A stretch of DNA of 64,000 nt from Mustelus asterias. Taxonomy: Eukaryota. The translations under genes were made by a program, and so were the position numbers. Positions 33,575 to 62,200 of the stretch are shown piece after piece (the first letter of the stretch is position 1; every line of letters starts with the position of its first letter). The notes beneath the pieces are model-generated. The model searched no databases and was not told the DNA's origin. It saw only the letters and a program-made list of their open reading frames with translations. The stretch lies in the NCBI RefSeq assembly GCF_964213995.1, contig NC_135812.1:34534001-34598000 (forward strand). Direction: 5' to 3'.

Positions 33575-36094
33575 TTGGTGTGGAGGAGTTGGACCCTTTC
33601 GACCAGGGGGTCCGACTTATGGGTCCTCACGTGCTTCCGGAGCAGGACAGGGCCTGGGGACGTCAGCCACGACGGTAGTGAGGTCCCCGAGGGGGTCTTT
33701 CTGGGGAAAACAAACATTCTTTCATGAGGGGTAGCATTGGTAGCTGTGCAAAGGAGGTGATCTAATCGAGTGTAGTGCATCAAGGAGGACCTCTTGCCAG
33801 CGGGTGACTGGAAGACCTTTAGATCTCAGAGCTAGTAAAACGGCCTTCCAGACTGTCGCGTTCTCCCTCTCTACCTGTTCGTTCCCCCTGGGGTTGTAGC
33901 TGGTGGTCCTACTCGAGGCTATGCCTTTGGAGAGCAGGTACTGTTGCAGCTCATCACTCATAAAGGAGGATCCCCGGTCGCTATGGATATAGCTAGGGAA
34001 ACCAAACAGGGTGAAGAGGCTGTGCAGGGCCCTGACGACCATGGCTGAGGTCATATCCGGGCAGTGAATAACGAAAGGGAAATGTGAATATTCGTCAATG
34101 ATGTTGAGGAAGTATATGTTGCGGTCAGAAGAGGGGAGGGGGCCTTTGAAGTCGACGCTTAGGCGTTCGAAAGGGCGGGTGGCTTTTATGAGGTGAGCTC
34201 TGTCTGGCCGATAGAAGTGCGGCTTGCACTCTACGCAGACCTGGCAGTGTCTGGTTATAGACCTGACTTCCTCAATGGAGTAGGGCAGGTTACAGGCTTT
34301 AATGAAGTGAAAAAAACCTGGTGACGCCCGGGTGGCAGAGGTCGTTGTGGAGAGTCTGCAATTGGTCTATTTGTGCGCTGGCACATATTCCCCGGGACTG
34401 GGCGTCTGGGGACTCATTGAGCTTCCCGGGCCGGTATAAGATGTCGTAATTGTAGGTGGAAAGCTCAATATTTTATCATTTTTGATCTTGCCCCGCTGCG
34501 TGTTATTAAACATGAATGCAACTGACCGTTGGTCCGTGAGTAGGGTGAATCGTTTACCAGCGGAGTAGTGGCGCCAGTGCCATAAAGCCTCCTTTTCGAC
34601 AGAGGAGTGTCGAATTTCAGGGCCTTGGAGGGTTCGTGAGAAGAAGGCCACGGGTCTGCCCGCCTGGTTAAGGGTGGCGGCTAGGGCGATGTCAGACGCA
34701 TCACTCTCCACCTGGAACGGGATGGATTTGTCTACAGCGTGCATCGTGGCCTTCGCGATGTCTGCTTTGATGCAGTCGAAGGCCAGGCGGGCCTCTGCCG
34801 TCAGGGGAAAAGAGGTGGATTTGATGAGCGGACGGGCTTTATCCGCATAATTGGGGACTCACTGGGCGTAATACGAGAAGAAGCCCAGGCATCTCCTCAG
34901 TGCTTTGAGGCTGGTGGGGAGGGGAAGTTCCAGGAGGGGACGCATGCGGTCGGGATCGGGACCGATGACCCCGTTTTCCACAACACAACCAAGGATGGCG
35001 AGGCGGTGTGTGCGGAATACGCACTTCTCCTTATTATAGGTCAGATTTAGGAGTGTGGCGGCGTGGAGGAATTTGTGGAGGTTGGCGTCGTGGTCCTGCT
35101 GATCATGGCCGCAGATGGTGAAGTTATCCAGGTACGGGAAGGTGGCCCACAGCCCGTTCTGGTCTACCATTCGGTCCATCTCACGCTGGAAGACCGAGAC
35201 CCCATTGGTGATGCTGAAGGGGACCCTAAGGAAGTGATAGAGGCGGCCATCCACCTCGAAGGCAGTATATTGGCGGTCTTCCGGATGGATAGGGAGCTGG
35301 TAGAATGCAGATTTTAAGTCGATGGTGGAGAACACCCGATATTGCGCAATCTGATTAACCATGTCAGATATGCGGGGAAGGGGAACGCGTCCAGCTGCGT
35401 GTATCGGTTAATGGTCTGGCTGTAGTCAATGACCATGTGATGTTTCTCCCCAGTCTTAACAACTACTACTTGGGCTCTCCAGGGGCTGGTACTGGCCTCA
35501 ATGATCCCCTCCCCTAGGAGCCGTTGTACTTCGGACCTGATAAAAGCTCTGTCTCCAGCACTCTACCGTCTGCTCTTGGTGGCGATGGGCTTGCAATCGG
35601 GGGTGAGATTTTCAAACAGTGAGGGAGGGGTGACTTTAAGGGTCGGGAGGCTGCAGGTGGTGCGCGGTGGGCGATCTAAGAACTGCTGATTGCAAATAGA
35701 GAGCGGGGGAAAAGGCCCATTGTACTCCATGGTGACGCTCTTAAGGTGACACAGGAAATCTAGCCCCAGGAGTACGGCAGCGCAGAGTTGTGGCAGCACG
35801 AGGAGCCTGAAATTTTTGTACACTGTGCCCCGTACAGTCAGGGTCGCCATGCAGTACCCGAGGACATCCACCGAGTGGGACTTTGAAGCCATGGAGATCG
35901 TTTGCTTCACTGGCAGTACTGAAAGGGTGTCGCGACTCACTGTGTTAAGGTGGATAAAGCTCTCCGTACTCCCACAGTCAAATAAACAGTTTGTAGTGTG
36001 ACCGTTTACCTCGATGTCCATCATGGACCTGGCGAGTTGGTGAGGCCTGGACTGGTCCAGCGTAATCGAAGCCACCGTTGGATTTTGCGACGTG

Positions 36095-36340
36095 GCTGAC
36101 GGCGTCCAAGATGGCGGCCCGCATGGCTCACACGCAGCTGATGGCGTCCAAGATGGCGGCCCGCACGGCCCACATGCAGCTGAAGGCGTCCAAGATGGCG
36201 GCCCGCACGGCTCACACGCGGCTGATGGCGTCCAAGATGGCGGCCCGCATGGCCCACACGCGGCTGAAGGCATCCAAGATGGCGCTCGCACGACTCACAC
36301 ACGGCTACCGGCACCCAAGATGGCGGCTCCCGCGGGTCGC
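36095..36340 (-). repeat. 42-bp minisatellite (about 6 units) in the Gypsy gag-protease linker
   Basis: Unit encodes ACEPCGPPSWTPSA. caagatggcg occurs at 36107, 36149, 36191, 36233, 36275 and 36316. Confidence 0.95.
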
Positions 36341-36853
36341 ATGCGGCGCTACTGGGCTTGGAGGTCGATTTCGCCCTGCATACCTTCACGTAATGGCCCT
36401 TCTTTCCACACTCGGAGCAGATCGCATCCTTCGCCGGGCAGCGTTGACGGGGATGCTTCCCCAGGCCGCAGAAGTAGCACTTCGGGCCTCTGGAGACTGC
36501 CGCAGCGGTTGGGTACAGAGGTGGCGGCGACCGCGGTGTCCACGATGCACCCTCGTGGTCGGGGGTGAAGGCCTCGAGATTACAGAAGGCCACCTCTAAT
36601 GAGTCGGCAAGCGCCACAGTTTTTTGTAGGTCCAGCCCACCCTGTTCCAGCAGTCGTTGTTGGATATAGTTTGACCTGATACCCGTGACATAGGCATCTC
36701 TGATTAAGTCCTCACTGTTTTGGTGGCTGTTACGGCCTTGCAGTTGCAGGCCCTGCCAAGTGCTTGCAGGAATTGATCGCCTGATTCTCCCGGCTGTTGT
36801 CTGCGAGTAACCAGAAGATATCTGGCGTAGATTTCATTAGACTGTTTGTTGTA

Positions 36854-43474: not shown

Positions 43475-44800
43475 GTTCTATCTGACACCACTGAGGACAT
43501 TAAGGAATGACCGTATTCCAGCTTGGTGTCCTTTCTCAAATCTCACCTCACCCTCCTCATGCTATCTAGCATGAAGTGTAAGCTACTAATGTGACCATGC
43601 TTTCCACCCCACCCCATTTCCTTCAGCCAAGCCTCGCCTTCTGTGTTTTCAGATATGTAAAAACTGCCACCTGACAGAATCAGGACCACACAGTTAAAGC
43701 TCAACCCTGCTAAACGCAGATTCAGGGTCAACCAGCTTCCTTATGTGGGTCACTTGCTCACAGCTAATGGTGTAAATCCAGATCCAAACAAAACAATGTC
43801 TATACGATGGCCATTTGGCCATTCTGAGGACAAATATGCCTTGCAGTGCTTCCTTAGTATGACAAACTATCTTTCCAAGTTCATTCCTTGTTACAGTGAG
43901 GTCACTGGACCTCTTTGTCAGCTCCTTCAACAAGATGTCGACTGGTGCTGGGAGCATCATACTGTTATATTTAACCAACTCCTCCAATGCTGCAATATAC
44001 CAATGTATGAGTCCCTGTACTCCTATCAGCAGATGCCTTCCAGCATGGACCTGGCACAGTCTGTATCCAGAATGGCAGAGCAGTAGCATTCACATCAAGG
44101 GCCCTCACTGATACTGAGCTCGTTACGCCCAAATCGAGAAGGAACTCTTTGTCCTCGTCTTCGCTTGTCAGAATTTTCATGACCCCATACATGTTCACCC
44201 TGCAACTGATCATCAACCACTTCTTGCAGTTCTTAATACGTCTCTTCACACTGTGTCTGCATGACTACATTCCATGGTGCTCAAACTACAGCAATACAAC
44301 CGCAGTGCTGTCTACAATGTGGTGAGGAACTGTCTACAAGTGTGGTGAGGAACTGTCTACAGGCATGGTGAGGAGTTGTCTACAAGGGTGGTGAGGAGTT
44401 GTCTGCAAGGGTGATGAGGAGTTGTCTACAAGGCTGATGAGTTGTACTTGCTGATGCTCTTTCCAGAGCCTTCCTGCCTAACACTGACCAGATAGATTGT
44501 GAGGAGGACATAACCATACATGTCCTCACATTTTGCCGAAACGAGGAACTTAAGGATGTCTTACAAGCAGATCTCATTCAGGCTGCTGCACAAAATCATT
44601 ACGAAAGGCTGGCCCGAATGCTCAAGGAGATTCCCCATGAGCTCTGCACTTTTCTCCAGGCACAAGGAGCTAACTGGACAGGACAGGCTGATACTGCATC
44701 TCCAGCGATCTGTCATCCCTGCCTCAGTACAGGGATACTACACCCAGCAACTCCAGCATAGGCACCCAGGGTTGGAGGCAACCAGGTACAGACACATTAG
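43475..44800 (+). mobile_element. Old degenerate Gypsy pol fragment (RT, RNase H, start of integrase)
   Basis: LKLNPAKRRFRVNQLPYVGHLLTANGVNPDPNK; FLSMTNYLSKFIP; RYAQIEKELFVLVFACQNFH; TDHQPL; VLADALSRA. Internal tandem repeat of about 23 nt at 44308-44440. Confidence 0.8.
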
Positions 44801-45129: not shown

Positions 45130-48100
45130 TTACAACTGAAATACTCACAGGCCCTTTGGGTTCCTCCATGGGATGGAAGGGTAACTGGAGTGAGATCCAG
45201 AATCTCTCTTCCCCCCCCCCCCCCCCACCCCCATGGTGTTCACTGTCTGAACTATGGAGTGAACATCCTGCACCAAGGTCTCCACCCTCACAGTGTTGGC
45301 CTGGTTGCTGGCACCATTTCCTCAGACAGAAGGCGATGGGACTCCTCCAGTTGGCCTTGCACTCCGAGGAGGGACACTGCATCCCCTCCTGATGTTCGCA
45401 ATTCCGACTTTGCCACTCCAGCACTTGTAGGATGACTAAACCCAGGGCATGTCAGCCAACCAGGGCTCAGCAGAGCCCTGGAATCCGGCATCCCTCCGAG
45501 TGCCGGATCTCTGGGATGTCCTGCCCCTGCCTTCTGTGCATTAACAGAAATGAGGTACTCGCCAGTGAGTGAGCCGGAAAGCTGCCTGCTCATTATTCCT
45601 GCCAAGGTGTGAGTCTCTGAGCTGGCGGAGGGTGTGGGGGACAGCTGGCACATCTTCAATGAGAACATCTGCAAACTTGTCTTTGCAGCTGCGGTTCTTG
45701 GTGGTTTAGTGTCCGACTGAAGGATGGACCAGGCTGCTCGACTGATTCACCTGCGGAATAAGGGAGCTGGAATTAGTGCATGGCAGGGGCATAAGGATGG
45801 AGGAGAAATAACTCATGTGAGGCTAGCAGGATAGATGAATATGTGTCCACCTGCTCCCAGATCACCTTGAGTGTAGGAGCGGTCCAGTTCCTCCCCGCAA
45901 AGCTGGAGGGCTCTCTCAAATGGAGTTAGTACTTTCAGTTTGGTCGTTACTCCTCACACCTGTGCTCTCTCTTTATTGTGAGCCAGTTTGGGCACAGTGT
46001 CAATAGGATGTGTGCCGGGGCAGATGGTAAGGATGCCTGGCAGGTGTGGTTGGTAGGTGGGAGATGGGGTGAGATGGGGAGAGGAGCCGCAGAGGAAATG
46101 AGGCCTTGTGAGGGAGGGCGAGTGGTGGGGCCCCTTGGGGAGCAGCGGGTGAGCTCCCAGTGGGAGAGTTCCCAGTGGGTGTGTGAGTGGATGAGTGGTG
46201 TGTGATGGGTAAGTGGTGACAGATGAGAGGAGTTACTAACCCTGGCTGCACTCATTTTTTTCCCGCACTGGACGCCCGTCCTCCTGTGCAGGCTGCTGGC
46301 ACTGACCCGCACTGCCACTGACCAGTGTTGGCACTGACCCGCACTGCCTCTGACCAGTGTTGGCACTGACCCACACTGCCCCTGACCAGTGTTGGCACTG
46401 ACCCACACTGCCCCTGACCCACACTGCCCCTGACCCACACTGCCCCTGACCCACACTGCCCCTGACCCGCACTACCCCTGACCGGCACTACCCCTGACCC
46501 GCAATGCCCCTGACCAGTGTTGGCACTGACTAGCACTACCCCTGACCAGCACTGCCACTGACCAGCACTGCCACTGACCAGCACTGCCACTGACCAGCAC
46601 TGCCACTGACCTGCACTGCACCTAACCAGCACTGCCCTGGACCAGCACTAACACTGACCCACACTGCCACCGGCCCGTACTGCCACTGACCGGCACTGCC
46701 ATTGACCCTGACCCACACTGTCCCTGACCCGCACTGCCACTGACCAGCACTGCCACTAACCCGCACTGCCACTGACCAGCACTGCCACTGACCCGCACTG
46801 CCCCTAACCCGCACTGCCACAGACCAGCACAGCCCCTGACCCACACTGCCCCTGACCAGCACTGCCACTGACCAGCACTGCCCCTGACCAGCACTGCCCC
46901 TGACCAGCACTGCCACTGACAAGCACTGCCACTGACAAGCACTGCCACAGACCAGCACTGCCCCTCACCCGCACAGTACCTGACCAGCACTGCCCTTGAC
47001 CCGCACTGCCACTGACCCGCACTGCCACTGACCAGCACTGCCACTGAACAGCACAGCCACTGACCCAAACTGCAAATGACCAGCACTGCCCCTGACCCGC
47101 ACTGCCCCTGACCAGCACTGACCCTGAACAGCACTGTCCCTGACCAGCACTGCCACTGACCCGCACTGCCCCTGACCAGCACTCCCCCTGACCAGCACTG
47201 CCACTCACTGGAACTGCCACTGACCAGCACTGCCCCTGACCAGCACTGCCCCTGACCCGCACTGCCCCTGACCAGCACTGCCACTGACCAGCACTGCCAC
47301 TGACCAGCACTGCCCCTGACCAGCACTGCCCCTGACCAGCACTGCCCCTGACCCGCACTGCCCCTGACCAGCACTGCCACTGACCAGCACTGCCACTGAC
47401 AAGCACTGCCACTGACTAGCCCTGCCACTGACCAGCACTGCCCCTCACCCGCACAGTACCTGACCAGCACTGCCCTTGACCCGTACTGCCACTGACCCGC
47501 ACTGCCACTGACCAGCACTGCCACTGAACAGCACAGCCACTGACCCAAACTGCAACTGACCAGCACTGCCCCTGACCCGCACTGCCCCTGAACAGCACTG
47601 ACCCTGAACAGCACTGCCCCTGACCAGCACTGCCACTGACCCGCACTGCCCTAACCAGCACTGCCCCTGACCAGCACTGCCACTCACCCGCACTGCCACT
47701 GACCAGCACTGCCCCTGACCAGCACTGCCCCTGACCCGCACTGCCCCTGACCAGCACTCTCCTGACCCGCACTGCCCCTGACCCGCACTGTCCCTGACCC
47801 GCACTGCCCGTGACCAGCACTGCCCCTGCCCAGCACTGCCCCTGACCAGCACTCCCCTGACAAGCACTGCCACTGACCCGCACTGCCCCTGACCAGCACT
47901 GCCACTGACCAGCACTGCCCCTGACCAGTACTGCCCCTGACCAGTGCTCTCCTGACCAGCACTGCCCCTGACCAGCACTGCCCCTGACCAGCACTGCCCC
48001 TGACCAGCACTGCCACTGACCCGCACTGCCCCTGACCAGCACTGCCCCTGACCAGCACTGCCCCTGACCAGTACTGCCACTGATCCGCACTGCCCCTGAC

Positions 48101-51100
48101 CAGCACTGCCCCTGACCAGCACTGCCCCTGACCCGCACTGCCCCTGACCAGCACTGCCAGTGACCCGCACAACCACTGACCAGCACTGCCACTGACCCGC
48201 ACTGCCCCTGACCAGCACTGCTACTGACCAGCACTGCCACTGACCAGCACTGCCACTGACCCGCACTGCCCCTGACCAGCACTGCCCCTGACCAGCACGG
48301 TTACTGACCAGCACTGCCCCTGAACCGCACTGCCACTGACCAGCACTGCCCCTGATTCACATTGCCACTGACCAGCACTGCCCCTGACCAGCACTGCCCC
48401 TGACCAGCCAGGCCACTGACCCGCACTGCCCTTGACCAGCACTGTCACTGACCAGCACTGCCACTGACCATCACTGCCCCTGACCAGCACTGCCACTGAC
48501 CAGCATTGCCCTTGACCAGCACTGCCACTGACCCGCACTGCCCCTGACCAGCCCTGCCCCTGACCAGTACTGCCACTGATCCGCACTGCCCCTGACCAGC
48601 ACTGCCCCTGACCAGCACTGCCCCTGACTAGCACTGCCACTGACCCGCACTGCCCCTGACCAGCACTGCCCCTGACCAGCACTGCCCCTGACCCGCACTG
48701 CCCCTGACCAGCACTGCCCCTGACCAGCACTGCCATTGACCCGCACTGCCACTGACCAGCACTGCCACTGACCCTCACTGCCACTGACCAGCACTGCCAC
48801 TGACCCGCACTGCCCCTGACCAGCACTGCTACTGACCCGCACTGCCACTGACCAGCACTGCCACTGACCAGCGCTGCCACTGACCAGCACTGCCTCTGAC
48901 CCGCACTGCCCCTGACCAGCACTGCCCCTGACCAGCACGGTTACTGACCAGCACTGCCCCTGACCCGCACTGCCACTGACCAGCACTGCCCCTGACCAGC
49001 ACTGCCCCTGACCAGCACTGCCACTGACCCGCACTGCCCCTGACCAGCACTGCCACTGACCAGCACTGCCACTGACCATCACTGCCCCTGACCAGCACAA
49101 CCACTGACCCACACTGCCACCGGCCCGTACTGCCACTGACCAGCACTGCCATTGACCCTGACCCACACTGTCCCTGACCAGCACTGCCACTGACCAGCAC
49201 TGCCACTAACCCGCACTGCCACTGACCAGCACTGCCACTGACCCGCACTGCCCCTAGCCCGCACTGCCCCTGACCAGTACTGCCACTGATCCGCACTGCC
49301 CCTGACCAGCACTGCCCCTGACCAGCACTGCCACTGACCCGCACTGCCACTGACCCGCACAACCACTGACCAGCACTGCCACTGACCCGCACTGCCCCTG
49401 ACCAGCACTGCTACCGACCCGCACTGCTACTGACCCGCACTGCCACTGACCAGCACTGCCACTGACCAGCACTGCCACTGACCAGCACTGCCACTGACCC
49501 GCACTGCCCCTGACCAGCACGGTTACTGACCAGCACTGCCCCTGAACCGCACTGCCACTGACCAGCACTGCCACTGACCAGCACTGCCCCTGATCCACAT
49601 TGCCACTGACCAGCACTGCCCCTGACCAGCACCGCCCCTGACCAGCCATGCCACTGACCCGCACTGCCCTTGACCAGCACTGCCCCTGACCAGCACTGCC
49701 ACTGACCATCACTGCCCCTGACCATTACTGCCACTGACTAGCATTGCCCTTGACCAGCACTGCCACTGACCCGCACTGCCCCTGACCAGTACTGCCACTG
49801 ATCCGCACTGCCCCTGACCAGCACTGCCCCTGACCTTCACTGCCACTGACCCGCACTGCCCCTGACCAGCACTGCCCCTGACCAGCACTGCTATTGACCA
49901 GCACTGCCACTGACCAGCACTGCCCCTGTCCAGCACTGCCACTGACATGCACTGCCACTGACAAGCACTGCCACTGACCAGCACTGCACCTCACCCGCAC
50001 AGTACCTGACCAGCACTGCCCTTGACCCGCACTGCCACTGACCCAAACAGCCACTGACCAGCACTGCCCCTGACCCGCACTGCCCCTGACTAGCACTGAC
50101 CCTGAACAGCACTGCCCCTGGCCTGCACTGCCACTGACCCGCACTGCCACTGACCAGCACTGCCCCTGACCAGCACTGCCACTCACCCGCACTGCCACTG
50201 ACCAGCACTGCCCCTGACCCGCACTGCCCCTGACCCGCACTGCCCCTGACCAGCACTGCCCCTGACCAGCACTGCCGCTGACCAGCGCTGCCCCTGACCT
50301 GCACTGCCCCTGACCAGCACTCTCCTGACCCGCACTGCCCCTGACCAGCACTGCCCCTGACCAGCACTGCCCCTGACCAGCACTGCCACTGACCAGCACT
50401 CCCCAGACCAGCACTGCCACTGACCCGCACTGCCACTGACCAGCACTGCCACTGACCCGCACTGCCCCTGACCAGCACTGCCCCTGACCAGCACTGCCCC
50501 TGACCAGCACTGCCCCCGACCAGCGCTCTCCTGACCAGCACTGCCCCTGACCAGCACTGCCCCTGACCAGCACTGCCCCTGACCAGCACTGCCCCTGACC
50601 AGCACTGCATCTGACCAGCACTGCCACTGACCCGCACTGCCCCTGACCAGCACTGCCCCTGACCAGCACTGCCCCTGACCAGTACTACCACTGATCCGCC
50701 CAGCCCCTGACCAGCACTGCCCCTGACCAGCACTGCCACTGACCCGCACTGCCCCTGACCAGCACTGCACTGACCCACACTGCCACTGACCCGCAGTGCC
50801 CCTGACCAGCACTGCCACTGACCAGCACTGCCACTGACCAGCACTGCCACTGACCCGCACTGCCCCTGACCAGCACTGTCCCTGACCAGCACGGTTACTG
50901 ACCAGCACTGCCCCTGACCCACACTGCCACTGACCAGCACTGCTATTGACCAGCACTGCCACTGACCAGCACTGCCCCTGTCCAGCACTGCCACTGACCT
51001 GCACTGCCACTGACCAGCACTGCCCCTGACCAGCACTGCCCCTGACCAGCACTGCCCCTGACCAGCACTGCATCTGACCAGCACTGCCACTGACCCGCAC

Positions 51101-54100
51101 TGCCCCTGACCAGCACTGCCCCTGACCAGCACTGCCCCTGACCAGTACTACCACTGATCCGCCCAGCCCCTGACCAGCACTGCCCCTGACCAGCACTGCC
51201 CCTGACCAGCACTGCCCCTGACCAGCACTGCCCCTGACCAGCACTGCATCTGACCAGCACTGCCACTGACCCGCACTGCCCCTGACCAGCACTGCACTGA
51301 CCCACACTGCCACTGACCCGCAGTGCCCCTGACCAGCACTGCTACTGACCCGCACTGCCACTGACCAGCACTGCCACTGACCAGCACTGCCACTGACCAG
51401 CACTGCCACTGACCCGCACTGCCCCTGACCAGCACTGTCCCTGACCAGCACGGTTACTGACCAGCACTGCCCCTGACCCACACTGCCACTGACCAGCACT
51501 GCTATTGACCAGCACTGCCACTGACCAGCACTGCCCCTGTCCAGCACTGCCACTGACCTGCACTGCCACTGACAAGCACTGCCACTGACCAGCACTGCAC
51601 CTCACCCGCACAGTACCTGACCAGCACTGCCCTTGACCCGCACTGCCACTGACCCAAACAGCCACTGACCAGCACTGCCCCTGACCCGCACTGCCCCTGA
51701 CCAGCACTGACCCTGAACAGCACTGCCCCTGGCCAGCACTGCCACTGACCCGCACTGCCACTGACCAGCACTGCCCCTGACCAGCACTGCCACTCACCCG
51801 CACTGCCACTGACCAGCACTGCCCCTGACCCGCACTGCCCCTGACCCGCACTGCCCCTGACCAGAACTGCCCCTGACCTGCACTGCCGCTGACCAGCGCT
51901 GCCCCTGACCCGCACTGCCCCTGACCAGCACTCTCCTGACCCGCACTGCCCCTGACCAGCACTGCCCCTGACCAGCACTGCTCCTGACCAGCACTGCCCC
52001 TGACCAGCACTGCCACTGACCAGCACTCCCCAGACCAGCACTGCCACTGACCCGCACTGCCACTGACCAGCACTGCCACTGACCCGCACTGCCCCTGACC
52101 AGCACTGCCCCTGACCAGCACTGCCCCCGACCAGCGCTCTCCTGACCAGCACTGCCCCTGACCAGCACTGCCCCAGACCAGCACTGCCCCTGACCAGCAC
52201 TGCATCTGACCAGCACTGCCACTGACCCGCACTGCCCCTGACCTGCACTGCCCCTGACCAGCACTGCCCCTGACCAGTACTACCACTGATCCGCCCAGCC
52301 CCTGACCAGCACTGCCCCTGACCAGCACTGCCACTGACCCGCACTGCCCCTGACCAGCACTGCACTGACCCACACTGCCACTGACCAGCACTGCCACTGA
52401 CCAGCACTGCCACTGACCCGCACTGCCCCTGACCAGCACTGCCCCTGACCAGCACGGTTACTGACCAGCACTGCCCCTGACCCACACTGCCACTGACCAG
52501 CACTGCCACTGACCAGCACTGCCACTGACCAGCATTGCCGCTGACCAGCACTGCCCCTGACCAGCACTGCCCCTGACCAGCACTGCCCCTGACCCGCACT
52601 GCCCCTGACCAGCACTGCCTTGACCAGCACTACCACTGACCAGCACTACCACTGACCCGCACTGTCCCTGACCAGCCCTGCCACTGACCAGTGCTTCCAC
52701 TGACCAGCACTGCCACTGACCAGTGCTTCCAATGACCAGCACTACCACTGACACGCACTGCCCCTGACCAGCACTGCTACTGACCCGCACTGCCACTGAC
52801 CAGCACTGCCACTGACCAGCACTGCCTCTGACCCGCACTGCCCCTGACCAGCACTGCCCCTGACCAGCACGGTTACTGACCAGCCCTGCCCCTGACCCGC
52901 ACTGCCACTGACCAGCACTGCCACTGACCAGCACTGCCCCTGATCCACATTGCCACTGACCAGCACTGCCCCTGACCAGCACTGCCCCTGACCAGCACTG
53001 TCACTGACCCGCACTGCCCCTGACCATCACTGCCCCTGACCAGCACAAGCACTGACCCACACTGCCACCGGCCCGTACTGCCACTGACCGGCACTGCCAT
53101 TGACCCTGACCCACACTGTCCCTGACCCGCACTGCCACTGACCAGCACTGCCACTAACCCGCACTGCCACTGACCAGCACTGCCACTGACCCGCACTGCC
53201 CCTAGCCCGCACTGCCCCTGACCAGTACTGCCACTGATCCGCACTGCCCCTGACCAGCACTGCCCCTGACCAGCACTGCCCCTGACCCGCACTGCCCCTG
53301 ACCAGCACTGCCACTGACCTGCACAACCACTGACCAGCACTGCCACTGACCCGCACAACCACTGACCAGCACTGCCACTGACCCGCACTGCCCCTGACCA
53401 GCACTGCTACTGACCCGCACTGCCACTGACCAGCACTGCCACTGACCAGCACTGCCACTGACCAGCACTGCCACTGACCCGCACTGCCCCTGACCAGCAC
53501 TGCCCCTGACCAGCACGGTTACTGACCAGCACTGCCCCTGAACCGCACTGCCACTGACCAGCACTGCCACTGACCAGCACTGCTACTGACCAGCACTGCT
53601 ACTGACCTGCACTGCCACTGACCCACACTGCCACTGACCCACACTGCCACTGACCCACACTGCCACTGACCCACACTGCCACTGACCCGCTCTGCCAGTG
53701 CCCAGCACTGCCACTGAGCCTGACCCACACTGTCCCTGGCCCGCACTGCCATTGACCTGCACTCCCACTGACCCACACTGCCACTGATCAGCACTGCCCC
53801 TGACCAGCACTGCCTCTGACCAGCACTGCCCCTGACCTGCACTGCCCCTGACCAGCACTACCCCTGACCAGCACTGCCACTGACCTGCACTGCCCCTAAC
53901 CAGCACTGCCCCTGACCAGCACTGACCCTGAACAGCACTGCCACTGACCAGCACTGCCACTGACCAGCACTGCCCCTGAGCTGCATTGCCACTGGCCAGC
54001 ACTGCCTCTGACCAACACTGCCCCTGGCCAGCACTGCCACTGACCTGCACTGCCCCTGACCAGCACTGCCACTGACCAGCACTGCCCCTGACCAGCACTG

Positions 54101-55392
54101 CCCCTGACCAGCACTGCCCTGACCTGCACTGCCACTGACCAGCACTGCCACTGAACAGCACTGCCACTGATCAGCAATGACCCTGAACAGCACTGCCTCT
54201 GACCCACACTGCCACTGACCCGCACTGCCCTTGTCCCACACTGTCACTGACCAGCACTGCCTCTGACCAGCACTGCTCCTGGCCAGCACTGCCACTGACT
54301 CGCACTGGCACTGACCAGCTCTGCCCCTGACCAGCACTGCCACTGACCTGCACTGCCCCTGACCAGCACTGCCACTGACCTGCACTGCCACTGACCAGCA
54401 CTGCCCCTGACCAGCACTGCCACTGACCTGCACTGCCACTGACCAGCACTGCCCCTGACCAGCACTGCCACTGACCTGCACTGCCACTGACCAGCACTGC
54501 CACTGACCAGCACTCCCCTGACCAGCACTGCCACTGACCCGCACTGCCACTGACCCGCACTGCCATTGACCTGCACTGCCACTGACCTGCACTGCCACTG
54601 ATCAGCACTGCCACTGACCACCACTGGCACTGATCAGCACTGCCCCTGACCAGCACTACCACTGACCAGCACTACCACTGACCAGCACTGCCACTGACCC
54701 GCACTGTCACTGACCAGCCCTGCCACTGACCAGTGCTTCCACTGACCAGCACTGCCACTGACCAGCACTGCCACTGACCAGTGCTTCCACTGACCAGCAC
54801 TGTCCCTGACCAACACTGCCACTGACCAGTGCTTCCACTGACCCGCACTGCCACTGATTAGCCATGCCATTGACCAGTGTTTCCACTGACCAGCACTGAC
54901 CTTGACCAGTGCTTCCACTGACCAGCACTGCCACTGACCCGCACTGCCACTGACCAGCGCTGACCCTGACCAGCACTGCCCCTGACCAGTGCTGCCACTG
55001 ACCAGCACTGGCACTGACCGGTGCTGCCACCACTTCCCAGGCAGAGTGTGTGACCTCACTGGAAAGACTCTGGCCCATTTGAGGGTACAGCATATCACGC
55101 CTCTCCACCACTGTATCTAGCTCGCTCCTAGTACCCTGGCACTGGCTTCCTCGCTGCCATCCCCTTGGCTAGACTTTGAACAGGTGCCAGGGAGGTGTTT
55201 AACTGCAGCTTCTCCCTGACTGAGATGCCCAGTTGATGTCGGGCGGGTGAATCAGAGACATCTCACCCCAGGCATGGCGGGAATGTCAAGTGCCTAAAAA
55301 TACAGCAGGAGATCCCACCGACTGGGCTGGGGTGATTCTCTCCAGTTTTCTCCCCCAAAACGACACAACCAAAAGAAAGGAAAATTCTGCCC
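45130..55392 (-). mobile_element. PIF/Harbinger-type element carrying a decayed Myb/SANT accessory gene, split by a satellite
   Basis: N-half VERRDMLYPQMGQSLSSEVTHSAWEVVAAPVSAS (55111-55010); C-half VSASSLHRRTGVQCGKKMSAAR|gttagt (46310-46240); next exon KLAHNKE (about 45990). All are homologous to the + copy at 60080-61180. TIR-like gggcagaattttc at 55392-55380. Confidence 0.72.
46299..55020. repeat. 8.7-kb satellite of a 16-bp unit CTGACC(A/C)GCACTGCC(A/C), about 545 units, with higher-order duplication blocks
   Basis: Seen directly. The rare variant cacagtacc recurs at 46972, 47452 (+480), 49998 and 51609. Confidence 0.98.
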
Positions 55393-55556
55393 AAAGATGA
55401 ATTCCCATTGGTAGAAGTACATCATAGATCTGGATGTGAGGATCGAGCTTAAACAATTCAATGATGTTGACAGATTGCATCAACTTGAGTTGTATTTCCT
55501 TCAGATCAGAAGGAGATTTCCTTGAGTTCAGAGGGTTGAGGTGATGATCTGACTGA

Positions 55557-59452: not shown

Positions 59453-59581
59453 GGGCAGGATTTTCCAGCAGCATTCGCCCCCACGGCCAGAAAAATCCCG
59501 CCCGAGGTAAATGGACATTTGCATGGTCTGTGTCCCGCCTGCTGCAATTCCCGTGATGGGCGGGATGGGAAAATTCCGCCC
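59453..59581. mobile_element. 129-bp PIF/Harbinger MITE with a TTA target-site duplication
   Basis: TTA-GGGCAGGATTTTCC ... GGAAAATTCCGCCC-TTA. Confidence 0.85.
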
Positions 59582-59829: not shown

Positions 59830-62200
59830 GGGCAGAATGATCCAATATTTTGGCAAAATGTCTTCTTGTGTGGGAAAAGGAGGTGATTAGTCCTCCGCCA
59901 GCCATGGTGGGTTTTGTGTCATATTTTTAGCCACTTTGAAAAACAGATTTTTGCTGAGTATGTGATGGCCAGTCACAAACTTCACCACGCCATTAGCTGT
60001 GTGCTTCAGTCAATGGCTCGCTCCATTGAAACGCTGCCCCAGGACTCCCCAACACTGGTTCAAAGTCCACCAGTGAGAAAGGCTGCAAAGATATCAGCCC
60101 CAAGATTCAGTGAGACATCCCTTGGCAGAATGCTGGATGCTGTTGAGGAGCGGCAGCATATCCTGTACCCACAAACAGGGAGAGGACTCTCCAGCAAGGT
60201 CTCCAACACTGTATGGGAGACAGTGGCAGTGCCGGAAAGTGCCAGCTACCTGTAGGGGAGGATGGGCATCCAGTGCAGGAAGAGGATGAATGGTCTTCCC
60301 CGTTCTGCCAGGGTAAGTCAATCTTCTCAGCACTCTGCACTCACCCACTCACACACACACTCACCCACTCACACACACTCACCCACTCACACACACACTC
60401 ACCCACTCACACACACACTCACCCACTCACACACACACTCACCCACTCACACACTCACCCACTCACACAACCACACACACCCACTCACACACTCACCCAC
60501 TCACCCACTCACATACTCACCCACTCACATACTCACCCACTCACACTCACTCACACACCCACTCNNNNNNNNNNNNNNNNNNNNNNNNNNNNNNNNNNNN
60601 NNNNNNNNNNNNNNNNNNNNNNNNNNNNNNNNNNNNNNNNNNNNNNNNNNNNNNNNNNNNNNNNNNNNNNNNNNNNNNNNNNNNNNNNNNNNNNNNNNNN
60701 NNNNNNNNNNNNNNNNNNNNNNNNNNNNNNNNNNNNNNNNNNNNNNNNNNNNNNNNNNNNNNTCGCTCATCCACACATTCACCCACTCACTCACCCACTC
60801 ACACACGACTCACTCACACATCCACAGGGAACTCACTCACTGTCACCTTGACGGACACCACCACTCGACCACTCGCTCTCCCACACACCTCCGTATCTCC
60901 ATTGCAGCTCGTCTCCTCATCGCATTCCTGCTCCCACTCCCCAACCACACATGCCAGGTCTCCTTAACATCTGCCCGGGCATGTGGCCTGCTTACCTTCT
61001 CCCCATCTGTTTTCTTGCAGGACAAGCTGGCTCATAATAAATGGGAGTGATCCCAGACAGACAGAGGGATGCCCGAGTTTAAAATTCACTCGGAACTCAA
61101 GGAGAGAGCCCTCTGGCTGGTCGGGGAGAAAGAGAATTTCTTCTGCACCGAGAGTGAGGTGGGCATCACAAAAACCAAGTGAGGACCCAGAACATCATCG
61201 TCCATCACACCAATCTGACGGGAGTCCTGTCACTTCAGACACCAGCGAAGATGAGTTCTCACAAATGGAGATTGAAGAGGTGTCACAGCTTTCACCAGCA
61301 TCCTCCACCAATGCAGAGACACACATATCAGTGGGACTCAGTATTCAAGAGGCCTCAGGGTCACAGTCTGGTGAGCACCTCACTCTCTCTGATCCACAGC
61401 AGGTGGAGGCTGGAACGTCCCAGGGAGCCAGCATTCGGGGGATTGCTGGAGGCCAGGACACTGCTGAACCCCAATCAGATGATGTCTATCTGGACTCAGT
61501 TGTGCTTCAGTTTCTGAAGCTCCAAAAGCAAAGTCAGGAACATCAGGAATGGATGTCAGCAACACTCCTCGGATTGAAAGGTAGAATGGAGGAGTCGCAC
61601 TGCCTTCTGTCTGAGGACATTGTACCAACACTCTGAGTCAACCAGGTTAACACTGCGAGGGTGACAGATGCACTGGAGACCTTGGTGACAGACCTCGGTC
61701 CTGCTCTAGGCGAGGGCATGAACTCCGTTGTGCATGACAGACACTCCAATGCGCAGGACATGCACTCCATGGTTCAGGCGCTTGTGGGCATCCACATGTG
61801 CCAGCGCCAGAGGACAGTGTGGCTTCCCCACGTGACTCTAACTGTCCCTCTATCCTAAGGAGGAAGCCAGGGGCCCTTGAGCACCCATAGGGAGGATGAG
61901 AAGCTGATGCACAACCCTAGGCCTTCCACCCAGGATACTCCAGGTTTGTCCAGCTCATCTGACTCTCCTCTTCTTGTGACTGTATCAGCTTCAGCCCATT
62001 GCACCACCACACAGCAGCACCCTGAGAGCAGGCCAGGGCCCTCCAAGCATCAGAGGACGCCTGCCAAGGTAATCACAGATAACAGGGCATGGCAAATAGC
62101 AGGCTGCGTCCACCTCTGCTGTGGATCCTGGGGAGACTCCAAAGACGTAATGACAAGGTTAGAAAGGTTAAGAAGGTCTTGTTTCACAGCATGGGGCTGG
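59830..62200 (+). mobile_element. Harbinger-type element with a decayed, intron-containing Myb/SANT (NAIF1/MSANTD-like) gene
   Basis: SAPRFSETSLGRMLDAVEERQHILYPQTG...VWETVAVPESASYL*GRMGIQCRKRMNGLPRSAR|gtaagt (60312). Next exon ttgcag|DKLAHNKWE (61021), then an acidic linker and a coiled-coil-like FLKLQKQSQEHQE. Confidence 0.72.
60338..60845. repeat. (CACT/CA)n compound microsatellite containing an assembly gap (N, 60565-60762)
   Basis: Seen directly; lies in the Myb/SANT intron. Confidence 0.95.

Follow-up and report, generated by a model that had tools for sequence, protein, structure and literature searches.

A 64,000-nucleotide stretch of DNA (the window, to whose first letter all plain positions refer) carries a long tandem array between what look like two halves of one transposon exon, which prompts one to ask if the array arose inside that exon or arrived from elsewhere. 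We argue that it is a minisatellite grown from 16 bp of Myb/SANT exon sequence in a broken Harbinger copy, and that it was very probably born in place through misalignment of near-repeats. The exon and the array are laid out as follows.

55030..55212, minus strand: N-terminal half of the Myb/SANT exon, with a 14-nt deletion relative to a second copy at 60 kb (nhmmer and alignment)
46302..55029, minus strand: 16-bp minisatellite of ~545 units (Tandem Repeats Finder, TRF, and unit segmentation)
55014..55029, minus strand: first unit, occupying the place of the single ancestral seed (it aligns with the single unit of 46 other rows)
46241..46301, minus strand: C-terminal half of the Myb/SANT exon, with a 12-nt deletion (nhmmer)
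46240-46239, minus strand: putative splice donor of the exon, judged from conservation

The window was compared by nhmmer with a family DNA profile of 45 paralogous exons. Profile positions 4-224 match 55212-55006 (E 1.3e-43) and positions 198-316 match 46320-46214 (E 3.4e-24); the two flank matches are collinear on the profile, and their overlap is confined to the seed. Both peptides that the preliminary description had quoted from the two ends of the array are present on the minus strand, and its view that they are halves of one Myb/SANT domain is upheld. In paralogues L257 and L258 a single contiguous match crosses both array flanks, which argues against flanks that are not parts of one element. 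When the array was sliced out in silico, as had been proposed, the joined peptide scored 85.1 bits against a profile of 25 paralogues, compared with 51.2 and 36.0 bits for the separate halves. The Pfam family expected for the domain, Myb_DNA-bind_5 (PF13873), was recovered in the paralogues (of 14 tested, 3 passed the cut-off and 9 had E<=0.1) but not in the window copy, whose separate exon halves gave zero Pfam matches; the 60-kb copy reached E 0.099, under the cut-off.

Within the window, TRF placed the 16-bp array at 46296-55030 (545.4 copies, 84% matches, 1% indels), in agreement with the ~8.7 kb first reported. Segmentation on the minus strand gave 541 units, 517 of them exactly 16 bp long, with a mean pairwise difference among units of 14.8%. 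The limits first given, 46315-55010, were close but need correction: the unit phase runs from 55029 to 46302, and the DNA added to the exon from 55013 to 46302 (8,712 bp). In the whole 3.68-Gb assembly, all 154 exact matches to the dimer sit in the window array, and because of this we class it as a single-locus minisatellite rather than a satellite family. Satellite DNA forms an abundant family at several loci, or very long arrays; here all exact dimers lie at one 8.7-kb locus, with collapsed or unassembled arrays possible. Of the satellite birth from a Harbinger Myb/SANT exon that had been proposed, the birth in place stands but the term satellite does not. The array probably has no function, and none is indicated.

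The remainder of the host element is short, and its outer limits are these.

45144..46240, minus strand: rest of the element, a putative intron and the downstream part of the Myb gene (homology to paralogue L258)
55379..55392, minus strand: TIR-like motif at the 5' end of the element, for which no partner was found on the other side

Harbinger elements are defined by a transposase together with a Myb-like ORF (available text of PMC9179366), and the exon family is of Harbinger type, since both a Myb/SANT-like ORF and a DDE transposase (PF13359) occur at family level. A genome-wide first look gave 7,722 candidates for the exon family, and all 150 that were scored had E <= 1.2e-9. Of 20 PF13359 transposase loci, picked by us from 150 listed loci of that kind and including two possible near-copies, 11 have the Myb exon at a distance of 2.0-3.4 kb, every pair being convergent. 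In L258 one end of a transposase adjoins the region homologous to the window copy, and homology of the window copy stops near 45144, just short of the place that the transposase takes in that paralogue. A tblastn search of the window plus 10 kb on either side gave no transposase match. The window copy is a broken, truncated member of the family.

Several further elements were seen during this work. A 129-bp miniature element at 59453-59581 has 14-bp inverted ends that resemble those of the family and a 3-bp duplication on both sides. At C2:126292634-126295531 (L259) the same exon is broken downstream of the seed by a 2.9-kb insertion. Remnants of an LTR retroelement lie at 33725-36833 on the minus strand (reverse transcriptase, integrase and weak zinc-knuckle matches) and contain a 42-bp tandem repeat at 36090-36327, possibly a second element-derived minisatellite; a 23-bp tandem repeat of 5.9 copies at 44307-44441 sits in what appears, by eye, to be a retroelement fragment. 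PF13359 itself gave 10,690 first-look candidates genome-wide, with several open frames longer than 400 aa. The available text of PMC9179366 states that no Harbingers were found in the elephant shark and calls for a check of other cartilaginous fish; if the present genome is a shark's, these candidates bear on that question.

What the exon looked like before the array can be judged from its paralogues, from two short motifs at the array ends and from the second copy in the window.

55022..55030, minus strand: upstream member of a 9-bp near-direct repeat (near-repeat comparison)
46294..46302, minus strand: downstream member of the near-direct repeat, which is also the incomplete terminal unit (near-repeat comparison)
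59830..61663, plus strand: second Myb-only copy, only distantly related, whose one seed lies at 60224-60239 (for comparison only)

Across the 46 other rows of the alignment (45 paralogues, one entered twice), the majority sequence at the seed is one unit followed by a near-copy of the start of the unit, and the array consensus differs from this majority by one CpG-type change. Judged by sequence, the array unit is the family's own 16-bp exon sequence. The codons V-A-V-R-V-S that had been read from the unit hold for the last unit alone; two residues are different in the first unit and in the family majority. A near-repeat beside the unit is present as first described, but it measures 9 bp with 1 mismatch in the window copy rather than 6 bp (10 bp in the copy on C7 described below). 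The 60-kb copy does have a single unit, but it is no proper outgroup, being 65% identical over the exon alignment and in a different clade from the window copy; L070, at 73%, is the nearest paralogue sampled. The single-unit state of the window insertion would accordingly be read from paralogues at most 73% identical to it, and no orthologous empty site of that insertion was found. A close relative of the 60-kb copy lies 160 kb off, at C12:34755816-34757126 (82-85% identical, without shared flanks). This near-copy was considered as a segmental duplicate that might hold the empty site, and was set aside when only the 60-kb element and common repeats matched. The intron of the 60-kb copy contains an expanded simple repeat.

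According to the model that we favour, the two 9-bp near-identical motifs, 16 bp apart, would have misaligned, so that the DNA between them was doubled. This first doubling would have followed insertion, with either replication slippage or unequal exchange acting on the near-repeats; these data do not separate the two routes from each other or from break repair. Two features expected under the published flanking-repeat model are present in the window copy: a unit of 10-100 bp at one locus, and a 5-10-bp direct repeat around the ancestral unit with an incomplete last unit. The coding nature of the seed has no visible part in the birth of the array, because 16 is not divisible by 3 and the 14-nt and 12-nt deletions are present in the gene. 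Hairpins in the seed were tried as a cause, and their energies (-6.0 and -6.9 kcal/mol) fall among those of undivided copies, which span -0.1 to -11.4, and therefore lend no support.

The closest competitor keeps the same place and seed but attributes the first duplication to repair of a double-strand break, such as abortive gap repair following a transposase cut, or to exchange between paralogous copies. Such routes have been proposed, as transposase-induced breaks (PMC6947457) and as unequal crossing-over between element copies (PMC2213677; both sources in their available text), and the family has thousands of paralogues. However, all three duplications known to us have a 16-bp period set by the same near-repeats, far from the ends of the element, and L070 is matched to much the same degree by the two flanks of the window copy (66-68%). 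We give this version only a slim chance.

Birth in place through near-repeat misalignment also had to be weighed against import, in which a repeat already existing elsewhere entered the exon, by insertion or conversion, at a look-alike site. Across the assembly, 238 of 239 dimers with at most 2 mismatches fall inside the window array, and wider pattern searches returned seven outside loci: four look-alike arrays, one undivided copy (on C5, rejected as a duplication) and two duplications. The look-alikes, 16-18-bp arrays without Myb flanks on C15, C415, C2255 and C3, are what gives import its appeal, and since they exist, likeness of the unit alone proves nothing. None of them has the window unit, however (0 exact dimers outside the window), the consensus of the window array is one change from the family majority, and the units of the two outside duplications carry the letters of their own subfamilies. 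Import is largely refuted by these observations and very improbable, and the fear that the same array would prove widespread with unrelated flanks was not borne out. As candidate births, the arrays on C415, C2255 and C3 were dropped for want of Myb flanks within 1.5 kb (C3 was seen on one flank), as was the array on C15, which is without Myb flanks and abuts an exon of a ligand-gated ion channel. That array (C15:2612401-2616559, L134) is a 4.2-kb, 261-unit 16-bp minisatellite starting ~12 bp past the channel exon (PF02931); the gene is presumably of the nicotinic receptor alpha type.

The two outside duplications lie between the same two exon halves as the window array, and both had escaped the preliminary description. 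At C7:124047009-124047072 (L103) the seed is present as 3 units; a transposase match lies 23 kb from this copy. At C11:73617635-73618472 (L263) it has grown to ~52 units (838 bp), the first of them truncated, and both near-repeats have been lost or overwritten, the downstream one by the array's own variant. The copies in the window, on C7 and on C11 are 62-69% identical pairwise, and the closest relatives of each are undivided. In a 72-row tree a single clade for the three was rejected (p-AU 1.66e-5) and three changes were needed. The seed has been duplicated independently three times. These results leave scarcely tenable the proposal that a single duplication in an active master element spread by transposition and was then lost in most copies: the C7 and C11 copies do share one broad clade, and Medicago Harbinger-like elements with variable tandem repeats are described in the available text of PMC2213677, but strongly supported branches force three changes.

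How readily the seed duplicates was approached through its undivided copies. At 456 sites the seed is single and intact and keeps its upstream flank; one of these sites is the edge of the window array, and none of 29 further intact-seed copies inspected carried a duplication. An early impression that longer near-repeats mark the copies that duplicate (a near-repeat of at least 9 bp in 3 of 43 undivided copies) was abandoned when 12 of 29 undivided copies selected by their seed proved to have one. Because of these 12, set beside only 3 duplications found, the near-repeat permits duplication but is not sufficient for it, nor does it make duplication common. The search patterns themselves demanded the flanking motif, so that finding it in every case is partly built in; since the largest seed subfamily was also left out of the duplication search, the count of three is both biased and a lower bound.

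That the array is an assembly artefact has next to no chance of being true, even though independent runs were used to check one junction and the array is spanned by no record, as its units differ by 14.8% on average and independent contigs from two conspecific samples cross the 55.0-kb junction with 0 differences (over 716 and 203 bp). These checks of reads and contigs covered the 55.0-kb junction only and used short-read contigs, whose summed depths do not give a copy number. A contig from a second species, organism A, matches 54985-55556 without gaps, differing at 29 of 572 positions, and starts inside the third unit; contigs of organism B cover the flank and stop short of the junction. Because the orthologue in organism A already has the start of the array, the array began before a species split of ~5% divergence, and after insertion of the element, whose terminal branch measures 0.15.

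Once the seed had doubled, growth would have continued by more slippage and by block duplications of 0.4-0.9 kb, while variant units took over the interior. A diagonal scan revealed block duplications inside the array of 916 bp at 94.5% (offset 1,611), 848 bp at 92% and 439 bp at 94.5%. Runs of identical units reach 13-22, compared with 4-5 in shuffles, although up to 3 near-identical units were allowed in the observed runs and none in the shuffles. The state of the first unit at positions 7-8 is found in 14 units, 11 of them within the first 30 or the last 16, as expected if the interior has turned over. From the blocks and the end pattern together we infer that, once the first doubling had taken place, unequal exchange or conversion was at work.

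The frequent variants suggest a possible addition to this scheme. In the window array they are only T-to-G at unit positions 1 (258/541) and 10 (155/541), both of which create G-runs in a unit whose seed is without one. The C11 array has the same T-to-G at position 1 in 46 of 51 units, along with changes at positions 13 (43/51) and 15 (19/51), and the position-1 change is absent from the 46 paralogue rows and the 3 units on C7. Windows with a quadruplex score of at least 1.2 make up 14% of the window array and 21% of the C11 array, compared with 1-3% elsewhere in the window and 0% of arrays of unmutated units; strict quadruplex motifs number 10 and 0 in the two arrays, respectively. Quadruplex-linked instability is known at CEB1 (available text of PMC2673046). 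One could therefore picture the exon as a recurrent minisatellite nursery (1, 3, ~52 and 545 units in a single genome) in which G-run variants drive the escape from short to long arrays, predicted G-quadruplex motifs destabilising replication and feeding expansion, a scheme we think unlikely as it stands. The gain of G-runs in both long arrays is a weak lead: it was spotted post hoc, with two arrays to go on; chance would produce a shared site roughly 1 time in 4 (a rough estimate); and each of the five changes also turns A/T into G/C, the outcome expected of GC-biased conversion.

The mechanism favoured here for the first doubling is already published, in the flanking-repeat model of Haber and Louis (1998) and in the slippage at non-contiguous repeats of Taylor and Breden (2000), both known to us through the available text of PMC3389668 and PMC6947457. 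As in those accounts, a 5-10-bp direct repeat flanks the unit, the last unit is cut short and growth comes afterwards; unlike them, the present case offers three independent events at one homologous seed, beside hundreds of undivided seeds, in one genome. Ahmed and Liang (available text of PMC3389668) catalogued 7,276 human loci among human and mouse transposon-derived minisatellites, with hotspots within elements and flanking direct repeats at 300 human loci, and Alu-, B1- and MaLR-derived loci are tabulated in the part of PMC9659126 available. Birth inside a dispersed element after insertion, and in certain regions of it, is common to those loci and ours; here, however, the coding exon of a DNA transposon is the source, and the array has 545 units, whereas most human loci that these models leave unexplained have only two.

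Two plant systems come closer in their source, again as far as the available texts describe them. The CficCl-61-40 satellite of Chenopodium goes back to the tnp2 domain of Jozin, a CACTA element (PMC7320549), and, like the present arrays, arose from DNA-transposon coding sequence, repeatedly and from analogous regions of parental elements. It is a major multi-locus satellite with a 40-bp unit that starts at a transposase fragment, whereas here the unit is 16 bp, the arrays are each at a single locus and both exon halves are kept. The Medicago PIF/Harbinger element MtPH-A6-4 has 60-bp tandem repeats (PMC2213677), and variable tandem repeats within Harbinger-superfamily elements are common to both cases; those of MtPH-A6-4 occupy subterminal positions and have been propagated along with the subfamily (18 of 23 members), whereas ours are exonic, rare and of separate origins. 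No report of a minisatellite derived from a Harbinger Myb exon was found in the literature searched, most subscription journals being outside its scope, and the word "Harbinger" is absent from the reviews PMC9659126 and PMC6947457.

Harbinger Myb exons are an addition to the known sources of minisatellites, with the mechanism unchanged. Minisatellite birth is usually inferred from a single locus. One seed in hundreds of dispersed copies, three births of differing size and an orthologue in a second species amount to a natural replicated experiment, and such a series bears on how often arrays are born and on what allows some of them to grow.
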